From positions 20,047 through 84,046 of IMG/VR virus record IMGVR_UViG_3300037483_000925: a DNA stretch of 64,000 bases. One strand, given 5' to 3'. Positions 12,552 through 28,792 of the stretch are shown one piece after another. Both the position numbers and the translations under genes were made by a program. Below the pieces are notes generated by a model, which saw only the letters and a program-made list of their open reading frames with translations, did no database searches and was not told the DNA's origin. This DNA comes from a virus (taxonomy: Duplodnaviria > Caudoviricetes). How positions within the stretch are numbered: position 1 is the first letter of the stretch; each line of letters opens with the position of its first letter.

Positions 12552-13511
12552 TTAACTGGTGGTCAGGCCGGTGATGGTCCCGTGGTACTCCTCGGGGCCG
12601 TGGTCAAGGCCGATCTGGCCGTAGATCATCTCGGTGTCGGCGGCGCCGGTCTTGGACAGGACGTCCCGGAACAGGACCCCCTTGTTGGGCACCGGGCAGA
12701 ACACCGGCTTGCAGACGCTCAGCTCGGCCACTAGCATCGTGTCGGTGGGCATGAACGGAGCCCAGACGATGCCCAGCATACCGAAGTCCATCTCGATCTG
12801 CTTGATGTTCACCCCGCCCACGTTCCGATCGTCCGGGGCGTAGCCGTAGATGTTGGTCAGTTTCTGCTTCTGGAAGGCGTTGACGAAAATGACCGCGTTC
12901 TGGAACAGGGAACCGTTGCCCGCCATGGTCCGGAATAGCTGGTCGCACAGGTCCTTGGTCAGGGGGGCGGTGCCTGCGGCCACGGTGTTCGTGGTGCAGG
13001 CGGAGACCATGCCCCGGCTCTTGGCCGCTACTGCGGCGGAGGTGGCCTGCTGGTAGGTGCCCTGGAGGAAGGTATACTCGATATCTACGGCCACCTGCTG
13101 GAGCGTGGCCGCGGCCTGCCAGTCCATCTCGTTTCCCACGGGCTGGGGTCCCAGCATCACGTTCCCGGCCCCGGACACGTACACGGTCCCGGTCACGGAC
13201 TGTTTGGCGTAGGACGCGCTGATGGTCTTCTCGAAGATTTGGACGGTGTTGACGTCCTGGCCCCTCACGTAGGACTTGAGGTAGGTGGAGGCCGTCAGAG
13301 ACGCGGTCTCGGTGATGGCCGGCTGGGCCGCCGTCTCCAAGGACCAGGGCTGGGCCACGGGGAACTCGAATGCCTGGACGGTGGCGATGGCCCCACCCTG
13401 GAGCCCGCCGATCATGTTTAGGAACGGGGTCTTGATGGCCCCGATCAAATACAATTCCCCGACAAAGTTGGGGACATTCCATACGGTCGCGGCAGCGCTT
13501 ACATTTGCCAT
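12552..13511 (-). CDS. Major capsid protein (SU10/DUF5309-like, HK97 fold)
   Basis: 319 aa, follows the scaffold gene; KTPFL, NTVQIF and DIEYTFL.G motifs. Confidence 0.85.
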   Translation of the reverse strand: MANVSAAATVWNVPNFVGELYLIGAIKTPFLNMIGGLQGGAIATVQAFEFPVAQPWSLETAAQPAITETASLTASTYLKSYVRGQDVNTVQIFEKTISASYAKQSVTGTVYVSGAGNVMLGPQPVGNEMDWQAAATLQQVAVDIEYTFLQGTYQQATSAAVAAKSRGMVSACTTNTVAAGTAPLTKDLCDQLFRTMAGNGSLFQNAVIFVNAFQKQKLTNIYGYAPDDRNVGGVNIKQIEMDFGMLGIVWAPFMPTDTMLVAELSVCKPVFCPVPNKGVLFRDVLSKTGAADTEMIYGQIGLDHGPEEYHGTITGLTTS

Positions 13512-13554: not shown

Positions 13555-14424
13555 TCAACCGGTGAAGGTCGGGTCCTCCTTGAAGATCGCGTTCTTGAGG
13601 GCGACCATGGCCACCGTATTACCCCTGGTCTTGGCCTCGGTATACTGGTCCTTCATGGTCTGGAGGGCGTTCCTCGGCCCCGAGGCGGCTCCGCCTCCGG
13701 CACCGCTGCCCGAGGCCTGGGAGCCTTTAAGCATCAGCTTGCTATTCGGGTGCGAGCGGATCAGCACCTCGATGGCCTCCTCTGGGGAGGCAAGCACCCT
13801 GGGATTGGAGGGGGAGTAGATCTCCTCGCCGTTGACCTTGGCCACCACCACGGGGTCGCCGCCGTTCTCGGCAGGCACGACCTCGAAGGCGTTCCCGAAC
13901 ATGGTATAGAGCACCTCCGGGAAATAGTTCTCGGCCACGGACTCCTTGATGAACTGGGAGGCTTCGAAGGCGCCCCGGACCATCAGGTTGCGGATGACCC
14001 GGTCCTGGTTCCCGGTCCGGGCCTCGAAGTCCACCAGCTTAGTCTTGTAGTCGGCGTCCAGGTTCCCGTACTTGGTCTCCCAGGCCTTGTTGACCTCGTC
14101 AATGGCCTTCTGCTTGAGCTGCTCCACCTTGCCCGCCTCCACGAATTGCTTGTCCTCGTAGTTGGCGACGGTGGCCAGCGCCTCCTTGGCCTTCTCGGCA
14201 TCCAGCCCCTCGAACGGGGTGGCGGCCTCCTCCAATTCCTTGATCCGGATGCGGTACTTCCCGGCCTCGTTGTTGGCCTCGGTGATCTGCGCACGCAGCC
14301 TCACCACGTCCTGGCCGGTCTCCATCCCCTTGTCGTCGACCCATACGGGGTTCCCCGCCTGGTCCAGGACCGCCAAGCTGACCTTGGCCCCCTCGATCTC
14401 GATCTCCTGTAGTTTCCAAGGCAT
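13555..14424 (-). CDS. Capsid scaffolding protein (DUF6651-like)
   Basis: N-terminal coiled coil, IYS...P..LA..EEAIE motif, Gly-rich linker; directly upstream of the major capsid gene. Confidence 0.75.
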   Translation of the reverse strand: MPWKLQEIEIEGAKVSLAVLDQAGNPVWVDDKGMETGQDVVRLRAQITEANNEAGKYRIRIKELEEAATPFEGLDAEKAKEALATVANYEDKQFVEAGKVEQLKQKAIDEVNKAWETKYGNLDADYKTKLVDFEARTGNQDRVIRNLMVRGAFEASQFIKESVAENYFPEVLYTMFGNAFEVVPAENGGDPVVVAKVNGEEIYSPSNPRVLASPEEAIEVLIRSHPNSKLMLKGSQASGSGAGGGAASGPRNALQTMKDQYTEAKTRGNTVAMVALKNAIFKEDPTFTG

Positions 14425-14575: not shown

Positions 14576-14734
14576 TCAGACAACCTGTCTTTGGATGGTC
14601 ACTTGTGCATCCCTGATCCCTCCCTGATGAAGTTTAACGGAAACAGCAATTTCCCCATTGGTTTTGGCCTCACGGCCAGCCTCCAGGGCCTTCTGAAACT
14701 GCTCAATGATTTTTGCCTGTTTCTCATTCGGCAT
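14576..14734 (-). CDS. Small protein, 52 aa
   Basis: Manual translation MPNEKQAKIIEQFQKALEAGREAKTNGEIAVSVKLHQGGIRDAQVTIQRQVV; below the ORF-track cutoff. Confidence 0.55.
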   Translation of the reverse strand: MPNEKQAKIIEQFQKALEAGREAKTNGEIAVSVKLHQGGIRDAQVTIQRQVV

Positions 14735-14782
14735 TTCCCTTATAATAAATTACTTTTTAGAAAATACCTAAGATAATTTTTA

Positions 14783-14968
14783 TTAATGGTAAAAAAATAA
14801 TTTATTTTTTTCAGTCCAGACATATTTTCCCGTTTGGCCCTCGAGTGCTTTATCATGCAAAAATTGACCAGAGGTAAAAGGGACAGGAATCCCCTCGGGG
14901 AAGGCCCTACACTTTGGAATCAAGTCCTCTCCGAATTGAAAATATTTACAATTTATGCATCCTTTCAT
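14783..14968 (-). CDS. Small Cys/His protein downstream of the MuF-toxin gene, candidate immunity protein
   Basis: CxxC...C.AFP.GIP...G...H; ATGA-coupled to the toxin stop and shares its low GC. Confidence 0.6.
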   Translation of the reverse strand: MKGCINCKYFQFGEDLIPKCRAFPEGIPVPFTSGQFLHDKALEGQTGKYVWTEKNKLFFYH

Positions 14969-16764
14969 TTCTTTATCACCACTACTTTCTTAGGATTAAA
15001 AACAATGATTTGGTTACCACCAACAACTGCCGTTAAGGAACGCTCTTTAATTATTATAGAATCATATCCCATTTCCTTAATCGCTTGAGTCATTGCAGCG
15101 ATCCTTGTATCCCAAGTAAATCCATTTTCTTCTTTAAATTTTCTTTGATTAATCATCCAATTTTCACTTCCTTGAGGAAACTTTTCATTTACTTGTTCAA
15201 GTAAATTTAAATTTTTATCTATCATTTTTCTTTCTATTGGGTCGGCGACATCTCTAATTTTTAATCTAAATTCTCTTGCGATTTCATCTTGTCCGCCAGT
15301 AAGTATTAAAGGATTATCTAATTTAAGTTTTAATGTCATTGTTGTTTGTTTAAAATCTTCTAAGTTACGATAAAGAGCTACTGTCTCTTTATCAATAGCA
15401 ACATAAACTCCATCTCCCCAGACCCTGCCAAATGCTTTTATCGAAAGATCAAAACCTTCCTTTTCAATAGCCTTAGCAGAATCTAAACTGGTCACATGAT
15501 ATACATCTTTAGTATATTGACTGCCTTCAATAAATTTCTCTGCTTCTATTCTAGTCATAGCTGATTTCCATTCTATCTTTCCAGCTCCAAGCCCGGGCAA
15601 TTCCCCCATCCCCAGCCCCCCGACCCCCTCCGGGCCGCCGTACCCCCGGAGCCCGGTCCAGGCCCCGGGCTTGCCCTCCAGGAGCCGGAGCCTGCCCGTG
15701 GCCGGGTCCACCAGACCGGAGAAGGAGACCTTGCCCTCGTCGATGAGGCCAAGGCGCCCCGGACCCACTATGGCCAGTCGGTCCTCATGGAGCAGCTTGG
15801 GGAACAGGTCCGAGAACGAGCCCTGGTGGAATCCTTGCATCTCGGGCGGTCTATAGGCCCGGCCGATGTCGATGACATCCTCGGATTTGGTCCAGGGTCT
15901 GTACGCCTTGTCCATCTCGTCGATGTCCAGGCCTAGCTCCCGCCAGGTTGCCGTCACGGGCAACAAAACACATCGTCAGCGATGATGCAAGGGACAAGCC
16001 GGAGGTTTTTCTGGATAAATATACTCATTCCCGTCCAAGGCGGCGCATTGTAGACAGGTGCCCCGACCCCTTTTGCCCCCAACTTCCAGCGTGGCGCACC
16101 ATCTTTCACCCTTGACGATATCCCGATTAGCGGCATAAACAGATTGCATGGCCCCGACATTGGCGCTCTGCACGTAGGTCCTGGCCAGGGTCACGGCCTC
16201 GGTCCGGGTCATGTCCCAGCCCTGCATGATCCTATCCACCAGGTCCGGGTAGCCCTCGCCCTTGAGCATCCCGGCCATGATCTCGTTCTTGATGCCCGAG
16301 ACCATGTTCCGGTCGAAGGTCCGGCCCACCCAGTCCTGGAGCAGCCTGCCCCCGACCGGGGTCTCGATGGCGAGGGACCGGACCTGGGCGGCGGTCAGGG
16401 CCAGGGCCTGAAAGGGGACCCTGCCATCCCAGGACAGGATATCCCCGTGCATAGCCAGGGAGGCGGAGCCGGCGTGCCCCGCCATGTCCGCAATATGGCC
16501 GGTGAGATAGTTCTCGATGCCCTGGGTCATAGAGCCGAGCTCGTCCAGCAGGGCCATGGACCTCTCCTCGTCCCAGGTAGATGGAACAAAAAGAGCACCC
16601 TTGGCCCTGGCCTCCAGCTCGGCCATGATCTCGTTCTGGGCCTGGCCCACGGCCTTGAGCAGGGGTTTGAGCGAGGCCTCAGTGAAGCCGTCGAGCTGGT
16701 CCTGCCAGGCCGCCATCCTGGCAAGGCGGATCAATTCCTCAGTTTTTTTGGTAGAGATGGGCAC
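14965..16764 (-). CDS. MuF/SPP1 gp7 head morphogenesis protein fused to an ART-like toxin domain, with one in-frame UGA (putative Sec263)
   Basis: ORFs 15976..16764 and 14965..15966 are in the same frame, separated only by a TGA inside C..C..LDG...PLHHR*RC. The C-terminal domain has YHVT, GDGVY, LDNPL, GYDSII and QIIVFNP motifs. Confidence 0.8.
15947..15978 (-). promoter_or_regulatory. Bacterial SECIS-like element
   Basis: UGA, 11-nt spacer CGAUGUGUUUU, then stem-loop GUUGCC-CGUGAC-GGCAAC with GU at loop positions 2-3. Confidence 0.65.
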
Positions 16765-19132: not shown

Positions 19133-20686
19133 TCATTGGACGGTAGCTCCCGGAACAGGGGCGGCCGTGCCAGGGGCGGCGGGCGGTCTCAGGAACGAGC
19201 CGGCCAGGCCCCCGACCGCGGACGACTGCAACGCCTGGTTCTGGAGGGCGGCCTCCACCTCGACCGGGTCGATGTCCTCGTTGAGCCAGCCCTTGTCCTG
19301 GAGCACGGTGATGGCTGTCTTGGTATCCAGCAGGATCTTCTGGGGGCAGCCTGCGGCCTTGAGCACCTGGTCGATGTCCTGGAGGGACAGGGTGATGCCC
19401 CTCAAATCCACCTTCACGGACCCGCCGGCGTCCTTGCCCTTGCCCAGCCACCTGGCGGTGTAGGCCAGTGCTGTCTCCAGGCAGTCCCGGAGGCGAAGGG
19501 CGGCCACCTGGAGCTGGCTGGTGGTCTTGGCCTCGTTGATGGCCTCGCCCGTGGCCGTGGGTGCCTGCCCGGTCCGGGGCATGAGCATCCTGAGCCCATA
19601 CTTGGCCATGTCCTCCTTCAGGTCCTGGAGGTCAGTCCTGGCGGAAGTTATGGCTGCCCCGGAATGCTCGGCGTAATAGAATTTGGCATTCTCACTGGTC
19701 GACTTGCAGACAGTCAAGGGACCGAGCGTGATCTCAGTCTCGTCGGTGATTATGCCCGTGGCACAGAAGATGGGGAAGCAGGCCACAGTCATGACGTTGT
19801 CATAGTCCGACTGCTTCTGGAAATGCCGGATGCTCTGGTAGGCCAGGTCCAGGAGCGGGGGTATGGCAGTCATGAAGCCGTTGTCCTCGTCGGCGTAGAA
19901 TGTCACCAGGGGAATGTAATTCAGGGGCTTGCCATCGTACCCGACTATGGGGCCGCCGCCGTTGCCCGAGGGGTCGCCCTCCTTGATTTCCTTCCACTGG
20001 CCGTCCTCGTCCTTGCGGAAGATGCGGAACCTGCCCGGCTCCAGGACTCGGATCTGTTCCTCGGCGGTGGTCCCGAATTCCCCGTCCTCCTCCTCGACCG
20101 CCTCCCTGATCCGGACCTGGGAGAGGACCGGCCTGCCGCCCTCCATCTTGTACCTCCAGGCGAAGACCTGGGAGGCCCGGTACATCACCCAGTAGGGGCG
20201 ATGCCCAGCGGCCTTTTTCTCGGCCTCAGTCCCGATCCCGGGCGGGATGGGGGTGGAGTCCACCAGGAGATGGACCAGGCCGGACCTGAGCCCCTGCTTG
20301 AACAGGTTCTGGGCGAATACCTGGAAGTGGTTGCCCTCCCGGTCGATGTCCTCCATCAGTCCGGGCTCTGCGTCTGTGCCCAGGATTTCCACGGGCACGT
20401 CCTCGTCCAGGGCCGGGGGTTTGGAGAAGACCTTGCCGGTGAGCATGCCCACGGTATCCTCAAAGGCGTCGTAGAGGGTGGCCTGCATCCAGCGCCGCTT
20501 GTAGTTCTCTGGCTTCTCGTCGGCGAACTTGGGCAGGTAGGCGTCGTGCTCCTCCCGGAGCCGGGCGGTACCCTGACGGAGGTCGTCCACCAGCTTGAGC
20601 CAGGGCTCCATTATCAGATATTGGTCGTGCTTCTGATCGACGCCCTTGGCGGGATTGGCGAGCAGCTCGACGGTATTGGCCATCAC
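19133..20686 (-). CDS. Portal protein (DUF4055-type)
   Basis: 517 aa; YLP...E...Y..R...A..Y, PPLLDLA..SI.H.Q..SD, TATGE motifs. Confidence 0.88.
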   Translation of the reverse strand: MMANTVELLANPAKGVDQKHDQYLIMEPWLKLVDDLRQGTARLREEHDAYLPKFADEKPENYKRRWMQATLYDAFEDTVGMLTGKVFSKPPALDEDVPVEILGTDAEPGLMEDIDREGNHFQVFAQNLFKQGLRSGLVHLLVDSTPIPPGIGTEAEKKAAGHRPYWVMYRASQVFAWRYKMEGGRPVLSQVRIREAVEEEDGEFGTTAEEQIRVLEPGRFRIFRKDEDGQWKEIKEGDPSGNGGGPIVGYDGKPLNYIPLVTFYADEDNGFMTAIPPLLDLAYQSIRHFQKQSDYDNVMTVACFPIFCATGIITDETEITLGPLTVCKSTSENAKFYYAEHSGAAITSARTDLQDLKEDMAKYGLRMLMPRTGQAPTATGEAINEAKTTSQLQVAALRLRDCLETALAYTARWLGKGKDAGGSVKVDLRGITLSLQDIDQVLKAAGCPQKILLDTKTAITVLQDKGWLNEDIDPVEVEAALQNQALQSSAVGGLAGSFLRPPAAPGTAAPVPGATVQ

Positions 20687-22297: not shown

Positions 22298-23764
22298 TCA
22301 ATAGCTCGCCTGCTGGACCGTGGTCACCTGAACTGGGGTCATGATCTCGTATCTGGAATCGTCGTAAACATGGTCCTCGGCATTGGTATCGACGTCATCC
22401 AGCTTCTTGGGGTCCCTGGGTAGGACCGGCACTGTCCTGATGAAATGGCGGCAGGTGTCGAACGTGAAGAGCCCCGGCTCCTCCATGGGAACCTTGGTGG
22501 CCGCCCTGAGCATCATCCTGAACCTCTCCAAACCCGTCTGCCTGGACCCGGGGCGCTTGTCGGCGGCGACCCAGCGGACCCCCACCCGGGCCATGTCCGC
22601 GGCTATGGTGCTGTCAGAATCGAAGATGGAGGCGTCGGCCGGGCCTGGCCTGATCTGGGTCCTGTAGGGCAAAAACTTCTCGATCTCCATAATCCCCCGG
22701 GCAATCTCCGGGGCCAGCATCTTGCAGCCCACGTCCGGGTCCTTGCCATTCCACCCGTACCATTCCGCCAGCCTGATCCGGGAGCCGGAGTAGAAGGTCC
22801 TGACCTTGTCCCCCGCCTGGACCTGGGAGCCGTCGGCGATCCCCCACCAGCCCACGGAGAAGGGCTTGCTGCTGCCCCAGTCGAAGGACCTGGACACCCT
22901 CCAGGTATGCGGGATCTTGAATGGAGGCAGGATGTGCACGGCCGGGTCCCAGACGTCGTCTATGGCCCCGCCGGCCACGATGTCCCAGATGCCCCACCTG
23001 AGGGCCTTGACCATGGACGCCGACCCTGCCCCGGACAGCCTGTCCTCGTAGGTGGGGTCGTTCCGGAGCTGGGTAGGGTTGTCCTCCAGCAAGGACAGGA
23101 TATACTGCCGCCTCATGCCCCCGTCCTCGGGCGGCATCTGGGTTATCCTACCCATGGGGGCAATGTCCACGAAATCGGCCTTGACCCAGTTGTGGCCGAT
23201 GCCCCCGGGGTTGGCGCTGGTCAGGATGCGGGGGAACAGGCCCCTGAATTGCCCGGAGAGCTCGAGGCCGCCGAGCCTGACCTGGGCACGCAGGAACTTG
23301 TAGACGTCCTTGCTCCACTGCTCCAGCTGGTCGATCATGAGGACGTGGATCTCGGCCCCCTGGTAGTTGTTCATGTCCGTATCGTGCTGGCAGTGGCAGA
23401 GGTGGATCTTGCTCCCGTTCCAGAACTGGAACGAGTTCTTGCCCGTGAACTTGACATCGCCCCACACCATCAAGGGGCGAAGCAGGGAGAACAGTGAGCT
23501 GGGGCCGTCCATGTGGTTCCGCCAAAGATCGGGGAAGATGCGACGGAAGAGGTAGACCTGAAGGCCGGGGATTGCGTAGCACCAGCTTATGGCGGCGGCC
23601 CTCATCAGGTGGCTCTTGCCCCCGCCCTTGGCCCCGCCGAACATGATCTCGGTGGCCTCGGACTGGAAGGCAAAGGCCTGCTTGGGATGGAGGCCGAGGT
23701 TGACATCGCCCTCGACGGGGGTGAAGGATTCCGCCGAATGGTATTGGAGGTCGGCGTTAATCAA
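22298..23764 (-). CDS. terL: Terminase large subunit
   Basis: GGAKGGGKS Walker A, SANPGG, FDWG RNase H-like motif, EDHVYDDSRY C-terminal motif. Confidence 0.95.
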   Translation of the reverse strand: MINADLQYHSAESFTPVEGDVNLGLHPKQAFAFQSEATEIMFGGAKGGGKSHLMRAAAISWCYAIPGLQVYLFRRIFPDLWRNHMDGPSSLFSLLRPLMVWGDVKFTGKNSFQFWNGSKIHLCHCQHDTDMNNYQGAEIHVLMIDQLEQWSKDVYKFLRAQVRLGGLELSGQFRGLFPRILTSANPGGIGHNWVKADFVDIAPMGRITQMPPEDGGMRRQYILSLLEDNPTQLRNDPTYEDRLSGAGSASMVKALRWGIWDIVAGGAIDDVWDPAVHILPPFKIPHTWRVSRSFDWGSSKPFSVGWWGIADGSQVQAGDKVRTFYSGSRIRLAEWYGWNGKDPDVGCKMLAPEIARGIMEIEKFLPYRTQIRPGPADASIFDSDSTIAADMARVGVRWVAADKRPGSRQTGLERFRMMLRAATKVPMEEPGLFTFDTCRHFIRTVPVLPRDPKKLDDVDTNAEDHVYDDSRYEIMTPVQVTTVQQASY

Positions 23765-27364: not shown

Positions 27365-28792
27365 ATGATCATCACCATCTCCAATAATATCCACCTCCCC
27401 ATGACTGGAATTCGGCCAGGGGTAGCGCACGAAATCAAGCGGCGGCTCACCTTCAAAAACCCAGCCTATGGCGAGGCCCTGGGCAGACTCAGGGCCATGG
27501 GCAGGGACGGCAGGCCCTACAACATCCCCGAGGAGATCAGGGGCTGGCGAGAATCCAATGGCCACCTGATCCTTCCTCGGGGATGTGCCGCCGACATCCA
27601 GAACTTGCTGACGGCCATGGATATCGAATACGAAATCCAGAACCGGACCAGGAAATTGCCCGAGGTTAATTTCTTATTCTTGAGCTATCTCAGGGCCGCC
27701 CAAGAACCAGCCGTAAGCGCTATCCTTTCCCGGAGATTCGGTACCATCTGCTCCCCCACGGGCTCCGGCAAGACGGTCATGGGCCTGTACTGCATCGCCC
27801 AGAGGCGGCAACCGGCCTTGGTAGTGGTCCATACCACCGCCCTGTTAAAACAATGGATAGATCGGGCGGTCCAGTTCCTGGGACTGGACCCGGGCAAAAT
27901 CGGCATCATCGGCCAGGGATCCAGGACCGTGGGCAAGCGGCTGACCGTGGCCCTGGTCCAAACCCTGAGGAAATGTGCCGCCGACATTGCCCCCAGGATC
28001 GGGCACCTGATTGTGGATGAATGCCACCACCAGGCAGCATCCACCTATACCGAAGCAGTGGCCCCATTTGATGCCGCCTACGCCCTGGGCCTGAGCGCCA
28101 CCCATAAGCGCAGGGATGGCCTGACCCTGCTCATCTACTGGTACGTGGGGCCTCTGGTGTATGAGGTGGCCCGGAGCACCCTGGTCAGGGACGGCGACAT
28201 CATCCAGGTGGAGCCAGTGATCAGGGAGACGGAATTTTCGCCCAGCCCGGAGATCGACCCCACCTGGCAGAGGGCAGCGTTGATGAAGGAGCTATGTGAG
28301 GATGATAATAGAACAGCTAGAATAGCCAACGACGTTATCATGGAAGTTGTCTCTGGAGGCTCCTGCATAGTTCTCAGTGACAGAAAATCTCACTGTTATA
28401 GAATAGCCGAAATGATAAGCTGGTTTCCGTCTAACAATATTCAGGCTGAAGTCTGTACAGGGGATACTCCTAAACCGGAGCAGGAGGCCATGATCCAGGC
28501 CATGAATGACGGCAGGCTCCAGGTCCTGGTAGCCACGGGCCAGCTCCTGGGCGAGGGCTTCGACTGCAAGGGGCTGACGGCCCTGTTCCTGGCTACGCCC
28601 ATCAAGTGGGAAGGCAGGTTAGTCCAGTTTTTGGGAAGAGTGGCAAGAAGTGCAGAGGGAAAGACAACGGCCAAGGTTTACGACTACGTGGATTCAAAAG
28701 TCCCCGTATTAATGAAGGCATACCGCTCCAGGGCCAGGACCTACAAGAAACTGGCCAAACTGGCCCAGGGGCCGACGCCAAAGGAGAAATGA
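27365..28792 (+). CDS. Superfamily 2 helicase (UvsW/XPB-like)
   Basis: SPTGSGKT, DECHH, LSAT, EGFD and QFLGR motifs. Confidence 0.92.
   Translation: MIITISNNIHLPMTGIRPGVAHEIKRRLTFKNPAYGEALGRLRAMGRDGRPYNIPEEIRGWRESNGHLILPRGCAADIQNLLTAMDIEYEIQNRTRKLPEVNFLFLSYLRAAQEPAVSAILSRRFGTICSPTGSGKTVMGLYCIAQRRQPALVVVHTTALLKQWIDRAVQFLGLDPGKIGIIGQGSRTVGKRLTVALVQTLRKCAADIAPRIGHLIVDECHHQAASTYTEAVAPFDAAYALGLSATHKRRDGLTLLIYWYVGPLVYEVARSTLVRDGDIIQVEPVIRETEFSPSPEIDPTWQRAALMKELCEDDNRTARIANDVIMEVVSGGSCIVLSDRKSHCYRIAEMISWFPSNNIQAEVCTGDTPKPEQEAMIQAMNDGRLQVLVATGQLLGEGFDCKGLTALFLATPIKWEGRLVQFLGRVARSAEGKTTAKVYDYVDSKVPVLMKAYRSRARTYKKLAKLAQGPTPKEK

Follow-up and report, generated by a model that had tools for sequence, protein, structure and literature searches.

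In bacterial selenoprotein genes of the Escherichia coli fdhF type, an in-frame UGA codon aligns with a cysteine of homologous proteins and is followed immediately, inside the open reading frame (ORF), by a hairpin, the selenocysteine (Sec) insertion sequence (SECIS). The stem of the minimal fdhF SECIS starts 11 nt after the UGA. We find the same arrangement in a tailed-phage gene for a minor head protein of the MuF/SPP1 gp7 type, at 14965..16764 (minus strand) of the 64,000-nt stretch analysed here (the window; positions 20,047 to 84,046 of IMG/VR virus record IMGVR_UViG_3300037483_000925): a single in-frame UGA aligns with the first Cys of an invariant H-x-x-C-R-C motif, and a hairpin stem starts 11 nt behind it. 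We hold with good confidence, from sequence comparison, that this gene encodes a phage selenoprotein made with host SelB and tRNA-Sec. It differs from the fdhF-type genes in being a phage gene, with no Sec machinery found in 84 kb of the phage record, in encoding a component of the virion head rather than a cellular redox enzyme, and in having a hairpin without a bulged U in its stem. A further difference from bacterial selenoprotein genes is that the putative Sec forms of MuF are rare and appear to have arisen many times within their family.

The protein has known counterparts as well. As for F (gp30) of phage Mu and gp7 of SPP1 (PF04233), there is an above-threshold domain, a terminase-portal-MuF-scaffold-capsid gene order and a C-x-x-C ... 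H-x-x-C-x-C cluster; unlike in those proteins, the first Cys of the C-x-C is here encoded by UGA. 'Polyvalent' effectors delivered by MuF proteins were described by Iyer, Burroughs, Anand, de Souza and Aravind in 2017 (PMC5512222). The window gene resembles such MuF-effector fusions in that MuF is followed by a variable, putatively enzymatic C-terminal domain with a small ORF directly behind, but its effector domain lies downstream of an apparently recoded UGA and matches an ADP-ribosyltransferase (ART) family below the Pfam threshold. MuF polymorphic toxins of temperate phages have reportedly been described by Jamet et al. in 2017; the present phage, in contrast, has a large, virulent-type look, exceeds 84 kb and, according to an earlier sequence-only reading of the window, has dnaE and dnaN of its own.

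Among viruses, selenoproteins are represented by the glutathione peroxidases of molluscum contagiosum virus and fowlpox virus. These too are virus genes that rely on host Sec machinery, but they are captured cellular redox enzymes with a eukaryotic SECIS in the 3' untranslated region, whereas the window gene would encode a phage structural protein with a bacterial SECIS inside the ORF. Decoding of UGA as Sec has been noted in a few viruses (PMC8310308), and a 2026 review of the prokaryotic selenoproteome makes no mention of phages, viruses, capsids or PF04233 (PMC13188914). No phage selenoprotein or selenium-containing virion protein of this kind was found described in the searchable literature. 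The element is fdhF-like and the protein family PF04233 is already known; the novelty lies in their combination as a Sec/Cys family among phage virion proteins.

The MuF frame starts with GTG and runs for 599 codons from 16764 to 14965 on the minus strand. Translation gives a single internal stop, a TGA at 15978..15976 (minus strand), and the frame itself closes with an ordinary TGA at 14967..14965 (minus strand). The sequence-only reading had taken two ORF pieces for one frame broken by the TGA at 15976-15978, and translation confirms this; the 262-aa and 336-codon parts are real, but the strand had to be corrected to minus and the end of the frame set at the ordinary TGA. On the minus strand the protein context round the internal TGA is ...TCLQCAALDG...PPACPLHHR*RCVLLPVTATWRELG..., and 336 codons stay open after it, including across DNA of 32% G+C. 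The first 262 codons (15979..16764, minus strand) encode, by translation and alignment, a helical N-terminal region and most of the MuF core, with C237-x-x-C240 and H260. Behind the UGA, which is the proposed Sec codon for residue 263 (15976..15978, minus strand), the conserved MuF C-terminal region (residues 264-370; 15655..15975, minus strand) carries the motifs RC..WRELG..RPWT..GFHQG..VGPGR..LVD..TGRL and aligns with all 360-390-aa relatives.

Membership of the Pfam family Phage_Mu_F (PF04233) is clear from a match at residues 158-267 that scores 35.9 bits against a gathering score of 29.6; since this match spans the UGA codon, the TGA lies within the MuF domain. The protein also matches PHROG 241 (head morphogenesis) at 5.7e-36. 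An AlphaFold model has a confidence score (pLDDT) of about 88-93 at residues 130-280, with a mean of 66 over the whole protein. A Foldseek search of the PDB with the whole-protein model gave no significant match, VIA-align matches to the model were confined to the N-terminal helical hairpin, and a search of the PDB with a sequence profile of MuF found no solved relative.

The 84-kb virus record that contains the window is linear and about 75% complete. The sequence-only reading had called for confirmation of the TGA in reads; a Logan contig carries the same TGA at a mean word depth of 17.5 and differs from the window by one base, outside the TGA, in the 1.1 kb compared. The contig stems from a sediment-metagenome run that probably represents the source sample and hence does not count as an independent sampling; no RNA run was among the sequencing runs listed with the sequence. 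As the TGA recurs in this separate contig assembly, an assembly slip is ruled out.

The column occupied by the UGA is otherwise a Cys. A first protein search gave 35 relatives, whose 360-390-aa members all align a Cys with the TGA, and the wider set of full-length representatives has Cys there in every case, followed as CRC in 131 and by an intein in the remainder. The proposal that the UGA falls on the first Cys of HxxCRC therefore stands for all full-length relatives examined. One shorter relative, P0015 (264 aa), ends one residue before the column; on its contig the sequence is ...PAHMK TGA RC QRDYVLVSWRELGIPMDEIDAAARPF, with homology that continues in frame until the contig ends. A second profile was built from the N-terminal part only, ending one residue before the Cys column and thus neutral between Cys and TGA forms, and was searched against 1.84 billion representative proteins. 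Among the best 150 matches, which were inspected, nine representatives are shorter than 300 aa, and seven of these stop exactly at the column (the window product, P0044, P0074, P0098, P0118, P0122 and P0164); the other two look like contig-end fragments. All six foreign short forms have TGA at the column, then in-frame RC...[WY][RKE][ED]LG homology for 95-286 codons or to the contig end. Over the TGA forms, the frame after the TGA is open for 95-336 codons. No form of this type with TAA or TAG at the column was found, and no short representative is truncated at any of the other three conserved Cys codons.

A degenerate DNA pattern, H-x-x-TGA-R-C-x8-[WYF]-x-[ED]-L-G, was also scanned in IMG/VR and in metagenome contigs. 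Chance matches made up 79 of the 86 hits of the viral and metagenome scans together. The IMG/VR scan gave L113, identical as a gene to L090, and L114/L117, which is related to L094, while the metagenome contigs added two new TGA lineages, L123 and L152. One of these genes (L117/L166; IMGVR_UViG_3300014204_000113 = Ga0172381_10000018) lies on a jumbo-phage contig of 187,988 bp; its Sec-form MuF has 88% protein identity to L094 and the same hairpin. Several TGA genotypes recur as identical DNA in two or three separate samples. In all, eleven distinct forms have TGA at the column, the window included. The sequence-only reading had called for homologous MuF genes to be tested for UGA/Cys alternation; this is borne out by ten further genes, the full-length rest having Cys. 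IMG/VR holds three true TGA-pattern matches, besides the window's own record, which was left out of the scan, versus at least 120 Cys-pattern matches; Sec forms are a small percentage of the MuF family. A second profile search against 90% clusters gave no further truncated forms, and the N-terminal piece used as a single-protein query found no close relatives in the viral and genome collections. On a tree of 177 N-terminal domains, the eight Sec forms then known require eight separate changes, which fits repeated Cys/Sec switching at one site.

The same residue is also a site of intein insertion. Inteins are found there in L027, L034, L035, L038, L041 and L058 (viral contigs) and in P0064 (L112:1501-5259). 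These genes read ...PLHP[RN] | C-L-T-G-E-T-P-V... ...S-S-N | C-R-C, so that the Cys corresponding to the window UGA is the +1 extein nucleophile. An intein-like start comes after the Cys in about 20 of the roughly 160 full-length representatives, and a Hint domain is present in P0064. Since Sec and inteins target the same residue, we argue that it is functionally critical.

The hairpin behind the UGA (15947..15964, minus strand) has a perfect 6-bp stem, GUUGCC/GGCAAC, and a CGUGAC loop (dG -7.6 kcal/mol). Going downstream on the minus strand, an 11-nt spacer (15975..15965) is followed by the first arm (15964..15959), the loop (15958..15953) and the second arm (15952..15947); the stem thus begins 11 nt after the UGA, as the sequence-only reading had described, and the apical loop 17 nt after it. 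That reading had also likened the geometry to the bacterial SECIS (bSECIS) model, whose rules require an apical loop of 3-9 nt, an upper stem of 4-16 bp, a UGA-to-loop distance of 16-37 nt and a minimum free energy of at most -7.5 kcal/mol, with a G as first or second loop nucleotide and, as a rule, G or U after it (PMC13188914). The window hairpin falls within every one of these rules: its loop has 6 nt with G at position 2 and then U, its stem 6 bp, its spacing 17 nt, and its dG of -7.6 is below the limit. A second small hairpin, CUGGC/GCUAG with loop GGGA (15933..15946, minus strand), lies directly behind the first and is encoded by the conserved WRELG codons; similar pairing also occurs in some Cys forms, such as L015, and is not UGA-specific.

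The 66-nt fold round the hairpin is no more stable than shuffled sequence (z = -0.24), so the evidence for the hairpin is comparison with relatives and not energy. A search of Rfam at permissive E-values round the site gave no SECIS family match. For the comparison, the best contiguous hairpin under the bSECIS rules, with a loop spacing of 16-29 nt and dG of at most -6 kcal/mol, was scored over distinct sequences. Such a hairpin is present in 7 of 11 TGA forms versus 0 of 145 Cys forms (Fisher 8.5e-10, Mann-Whitney 1.1e-6; as the first cases were already known when the thresholds were fixed, the exact p-values are soft, though the separation of the groups is not), and 129 of the 145 Cys forms have no qualifying hairpin whatever. 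The seven hairpins range from -6.1 to -11.9 kcal/mol, and their loops (CGUGAC, CGUGU, GUUA, GGU, CGUGA, AGUU and AGUU) all contain GU. A simpler stem test, asking for at least six uninterrupted pairs and a loop start 16-23 nt after the codon, is passed by 7 of 8 TGA forms versus 1 of 56 Cys forms; the strict cut-off of -7.5 kcal/mol on the bare upper stem is passed by 2 of 8 Sec forms and by none of the 56 Cys forms. The sole Cys form to pass the stem test, L004 (IMGVR_UViG_3300045116_000080), has a perfect 6-bp hairpin, ACUUAC/GUAAGU with loop CCGUAUUA, about 16 nt after its TGT; it may be a former Sec form or a chance occurrence.

Stem sequences have nothing in common from lineage to lineage, and the distance from UGA to loop is either about 17 or about 23 nt; both observations fit independent origins of the hairpins. 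Two pairs of relatives bear on how the hairpins are maintained and gained. L094 and L114, both TGA forms, have 84.8% DNA identity over 372 codons and share TGA and hairpin; over the 36 nt from UGA to hairpin end they have one difference, which turns a G.U pair into A-U. L001 (TGA) and L110 (TGC) have 89% protein identity, yet their hairpins differ at 12 of 24 nucleotides, a count exceeded in none of 286 sliding windows; the differences include two amino-acid and five synonymous changes that jointly build the stem. The two comparisons show selection on the RNA.

Decoding of the UGA as Sec through a SECIS-like hairpin, as the sequence-only reading had suggested, thus has strong comparative support in ten further TGA lineages and in a hairpin that goes with the TGA forms only. 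Under this reading, residue 263 of the MuF/SPP1 gp7-type minor head protein, the first Cys of the invariant H-x-x-C-R-C, would be Sec. Late in infection, a complex of host SelB, GTP and Sec-tRNA(Sec) would bind the hairpin 11 nt behind the UGA and deliver Sec to the ribosome. Translation would then proceed through the remainder of the MuF domain, the Gly-rich linker and the ART-PolyVal-like domain to give a 599-aa U-x-C protein that would be packaged in the head. The Sec may act as a metal ligand or as the redox or nucleophilic centre of the Cys/His cluster, and the delivered domain would have effector activity. Ribosomes that terminate at the UGA would release a 262-aa fragment cut inside the MuF domain and probably non-functional; because of that cut, the whole function of MuF, and not the effector domain alone, would depend on Sec decoding.

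As the 84-kb record holds no tRNA-Sec, selB or selD, Sec machinery can only come from the host. Among genomes, the closest relatives of the MuF protein belong to metagenome-assembled genomes (MAGs) of Desulfovibrionaceae and Dissulfurispiraceae, and two Desulfovibrionaceae MAGs with Cys-form relatives have a tRNA-Sec above the Rfam cut-off, which is circumstantial. These MAGs and the sediment sample fit a Sec-using anaerobe as host but do not show one. A tRNA-Sec that seemed to lie near a relative's MuF gene was dropped, as it is located on a different contig. The 401 genomes of the phylum of the Desulfovibrionaceae MAG contain only three members of the MuF family, none with an internal stop, and no prophage-borne Sec form that could provide a host link was found among them. 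Cultured-phage relatives of the portal and MuF proteins infect Xanthomonas, Stenotrophomonas and Pseudomonas; at 36% identity or less they are too distant to name a host from.

Several points weigh against the selenoprotein reading. Neither tRNA-Sec nor selB nor selD was found in the phage record, the link to a Sec-competent host is the main gap in the argument, and the support is comparative. Four of the eleven TGA forms (L089, L152, L096 and L123) have no canonical bSECIS hairpin: in L089 the loop G is at position 3, one position off the rule, and L152 and L096 have 6-bp-like stems with large G-less loops. A subset of bacterial selenoprotein genes likewise lies outside the bSECIS model (PMC13188914). 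L108, a Cys form that is the window's nearest relative at 72% identity, differs from it in five of six hairpin codons, which is not exceptional at that distance, and the softness of the p-values noted above counts here too. On the tree, most Sec forms sit as single tips within groups of Cys forms, a pattern that recurrent short-lived mutations would also give, and TGY becomes TGA by one mutation, so that finding always TGA is by itself compatible with nonsense.

Behind the MuF domain, a Gly-rich linker (residues 371-395; 15580..15654, minus strand; locally up to 73% G+C) leads to a domain of about 200 residues (14968..15579, minus strand) with about 32% G+C versus 63% in the rest of the gene and head module. 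The domain resembles ART-PolyVal, an ADP-ribosyltransferase-like effector or toxin domain of the H-Y-D type. The sequence-only reading had suggested an ART-like toxin domain, and this holds as a lead: PF18760 (ART-PolyVal) matches with E = 4.6e-4 and 21.4 bits, below its cut-off of 31.2 bits, and the nearest ESM Atlas clusters are ART-PolyVal (0.94; 201 of 256 shared features). We refer to it as ART-PolyVal-like and not as a member of the Pfam family. The ART-PolyVal active site consists of H in strand 1, Y in strand 2 and D in strand 5 (PMC5512222). In the window protein, H423 (VYHVT) and Y454 (GDGVYVA) are candidates and lie on predicted strands, in a part of the model with low confidence (pLDDT 25-70); no D could be placed. 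Single-protein scans of viral contigs, cultured phages and a protein database found no close relatives of the domain.

The small gene expected downstream of MuF is present as a 61-aa ORF (14783..14968, minus strand; 38% G+C) that overlaps the MuF stop (ATGA) and is a candidate immunity or partner protein. Its product, which starts MKGCINCKYF.., may be a small protein that binds metal, as it has a CxxC and, at residue 20, a third Cys. The ORF has no Pfam or PHROG match. Together, the ART-like domain, this ORF and the spacer behind it (14600-15560) contain 30-39% G+C, the surrounding head module having 63%, with the junction at the Gly-rich linker, and the segment looks like a recently acquired effector cassette. 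The nearest relative of the window protein, P0039 (L108:3001-4919, Logan contig; 571 aa, Cys form, 11 contigs), is 72% identical in the N-terminal part and has ADPrib_exo_Tox (2.1e-13) and an overlapping 68-aa ORF at the same positions. By this comparison the segment is an effector cassette that can be swapped, as in MuF-effector fusions or polymorphic toxins, and that apparently was exchanged between sister phages. A long C-terminal extension is also found in a second Sec form, L092:921-1778 (ENA contig; the same gene occurs in L093 and L190), whose frame continues for 286 codons behind the UGA; the extension has no Pfam match and is a candidate effector-like domain.

The position of the cassette relates to what the UGA is for. 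The sequence-only reading had proposed that the UGA is an adaptive gate, dependent on selenium or SelB, for loading the ART-like toxin, and that the 262-aa product is a MuF protein free of toxin. The effector domain does lie wholly downstream of the UGA and would be made only after recoding, cassettes are swapped in the clade, the nearest relative having ADPrib_exo_Tox and a 68-aa ORF in the same place, and the cassette here looks like a recent low-G+C acquisition. However, only two of the nine Sec forms with a known C-terminal end (the window and L092) have an extra domain, and many Cys forms (those of more than 500 aa) carry one; with extra domains few in Sec forms and many in Cys forms, the UGA is not linked to effectors, and a selenium-dependent toxin gate is not supported as a general function. 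Nor is a useful 262-aa protein, as the stop falls inside the MuF domain: the product ends five residues before the end of the Pfam match and would lack Cys263 and Cys265, one predicted strand and the C-terminal region of about 105 aa that is conserved in all relatives. It is unlikely that this product works as a MuF protein, and we regard the gate as a whole as improbable. A different use of the hairpin, to stimulate near-cognate decoding of a leaky UGA-C independently of SECIS function, would give a fixed ratio of 262-aa to full-length product with Trp, Cys or Arg inserted. UGA-C is a weak terminator, downstream hairpins are known readthrough stimulators in viruses, and every form seen has C or A as the next base after the UGA. 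A virion needs only a few copies of MuF, and canonical SECIS features are missing in four of the TGA forms. Nothing would tie a readthrough switch to a particular codon, whereas the site is always an invariant Cys, a residue whose replacement by Trp or Arg would disrupt the motif; the loops lie 17-23 nt after the UGA (16-37 being allowed) and their apical GU fits the SelB-type model, and the stop product would again be cut inside the MuF domain. Programmed readthrough of this kind is improbable, and it is harder to exclude from sequence than recurrent nonsense.

Recurrent nonsense would make the TGA forms defective or short-lived variants of Cys-form phages, their hairpins being incidental. 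This would accord with the rarity of Sec forms in IMG/VR relative to Cys-pattern matches, with their scatter as single tips among Cys forms and with the single substitution that separates TGY from TGA, and SPP1 gp7 was reportedly found non-essential by Vinga et al. in 2006, a study listed in PMC5512222. Against it, truncations concentrate on one codon (seven of the nine short representatives, none at the other three conserved Cys), the downstream frames are open for 95-336 codons, bSECIS-type hairpins occur in 7 of 11 TGA but 0 of 145 Cys forms, TGA and hairpin are kept across 15% DNA divergence, and identical TGA genotypes occur in separate samples; we consider this explanation improbable. 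That all UGAs of the phage are read through, by an alternative genetic code or a phage suppressor tRNA, is effectively refuted. Some phages of recoded hosts do carry in-frame stops, but here the 599 codons contain a single in-frame TGA, 8 of the 15 head-module genes, including portal and terminase, end in TGA as their ordinary stop, and no tRNA was found in the window or in the 84-kb record.

The surroundings of the gene are those of a head module. On the minus strand the order is terminase large subunit (22298-23764), portal (19133-20686), small ORFs, MuF, the 61-aa ORF, scaffold (13555-14424) and major head protein (12552-13511), and the MuF gene is in the canonical place for a MuF/gp7 gene. 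A mechanical scan of the window gave eight more single in-frame TGAs that join open stretches of at least 100 codons, among them those at 23495-23497 and 28790-28792 on the plus strand and at 49395-49393 on the minus strand; at such G+C these are probably for the most part shadow frames or neighbouring genes.

We think it likely that tailed phages of Sec-using anaerobes repeatedly turn an invariant MuF Cys into Sec, each by way of a hairpin of its own evolution and with host SelB; the delivery of an injected ART-like effector by the window phage would then also be coupled to the selenium status of the host. If so, bacterial viruses would have in MuF their first selenoprotein family, and their virions a component that contains selenium, and phages would be able to exploit a host recoding system for a structural protein. 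The cysteine of the MuF H-x-x-C-x-C would then be chemically active and not merely structural. Since gene callers split all of these genes in two, the TGA forms of the family are systematically mis-annotated. The need for Sec decoding would constitute a new determinant of host range, as only Sec-competent hosts could make the protein, and would serve as a marker when hosts of uncultured phages are to be predicted. With a new SECIS at each of its many independent Cys/Sec switches, the family would form a natural series for the origin of SECIS elements.

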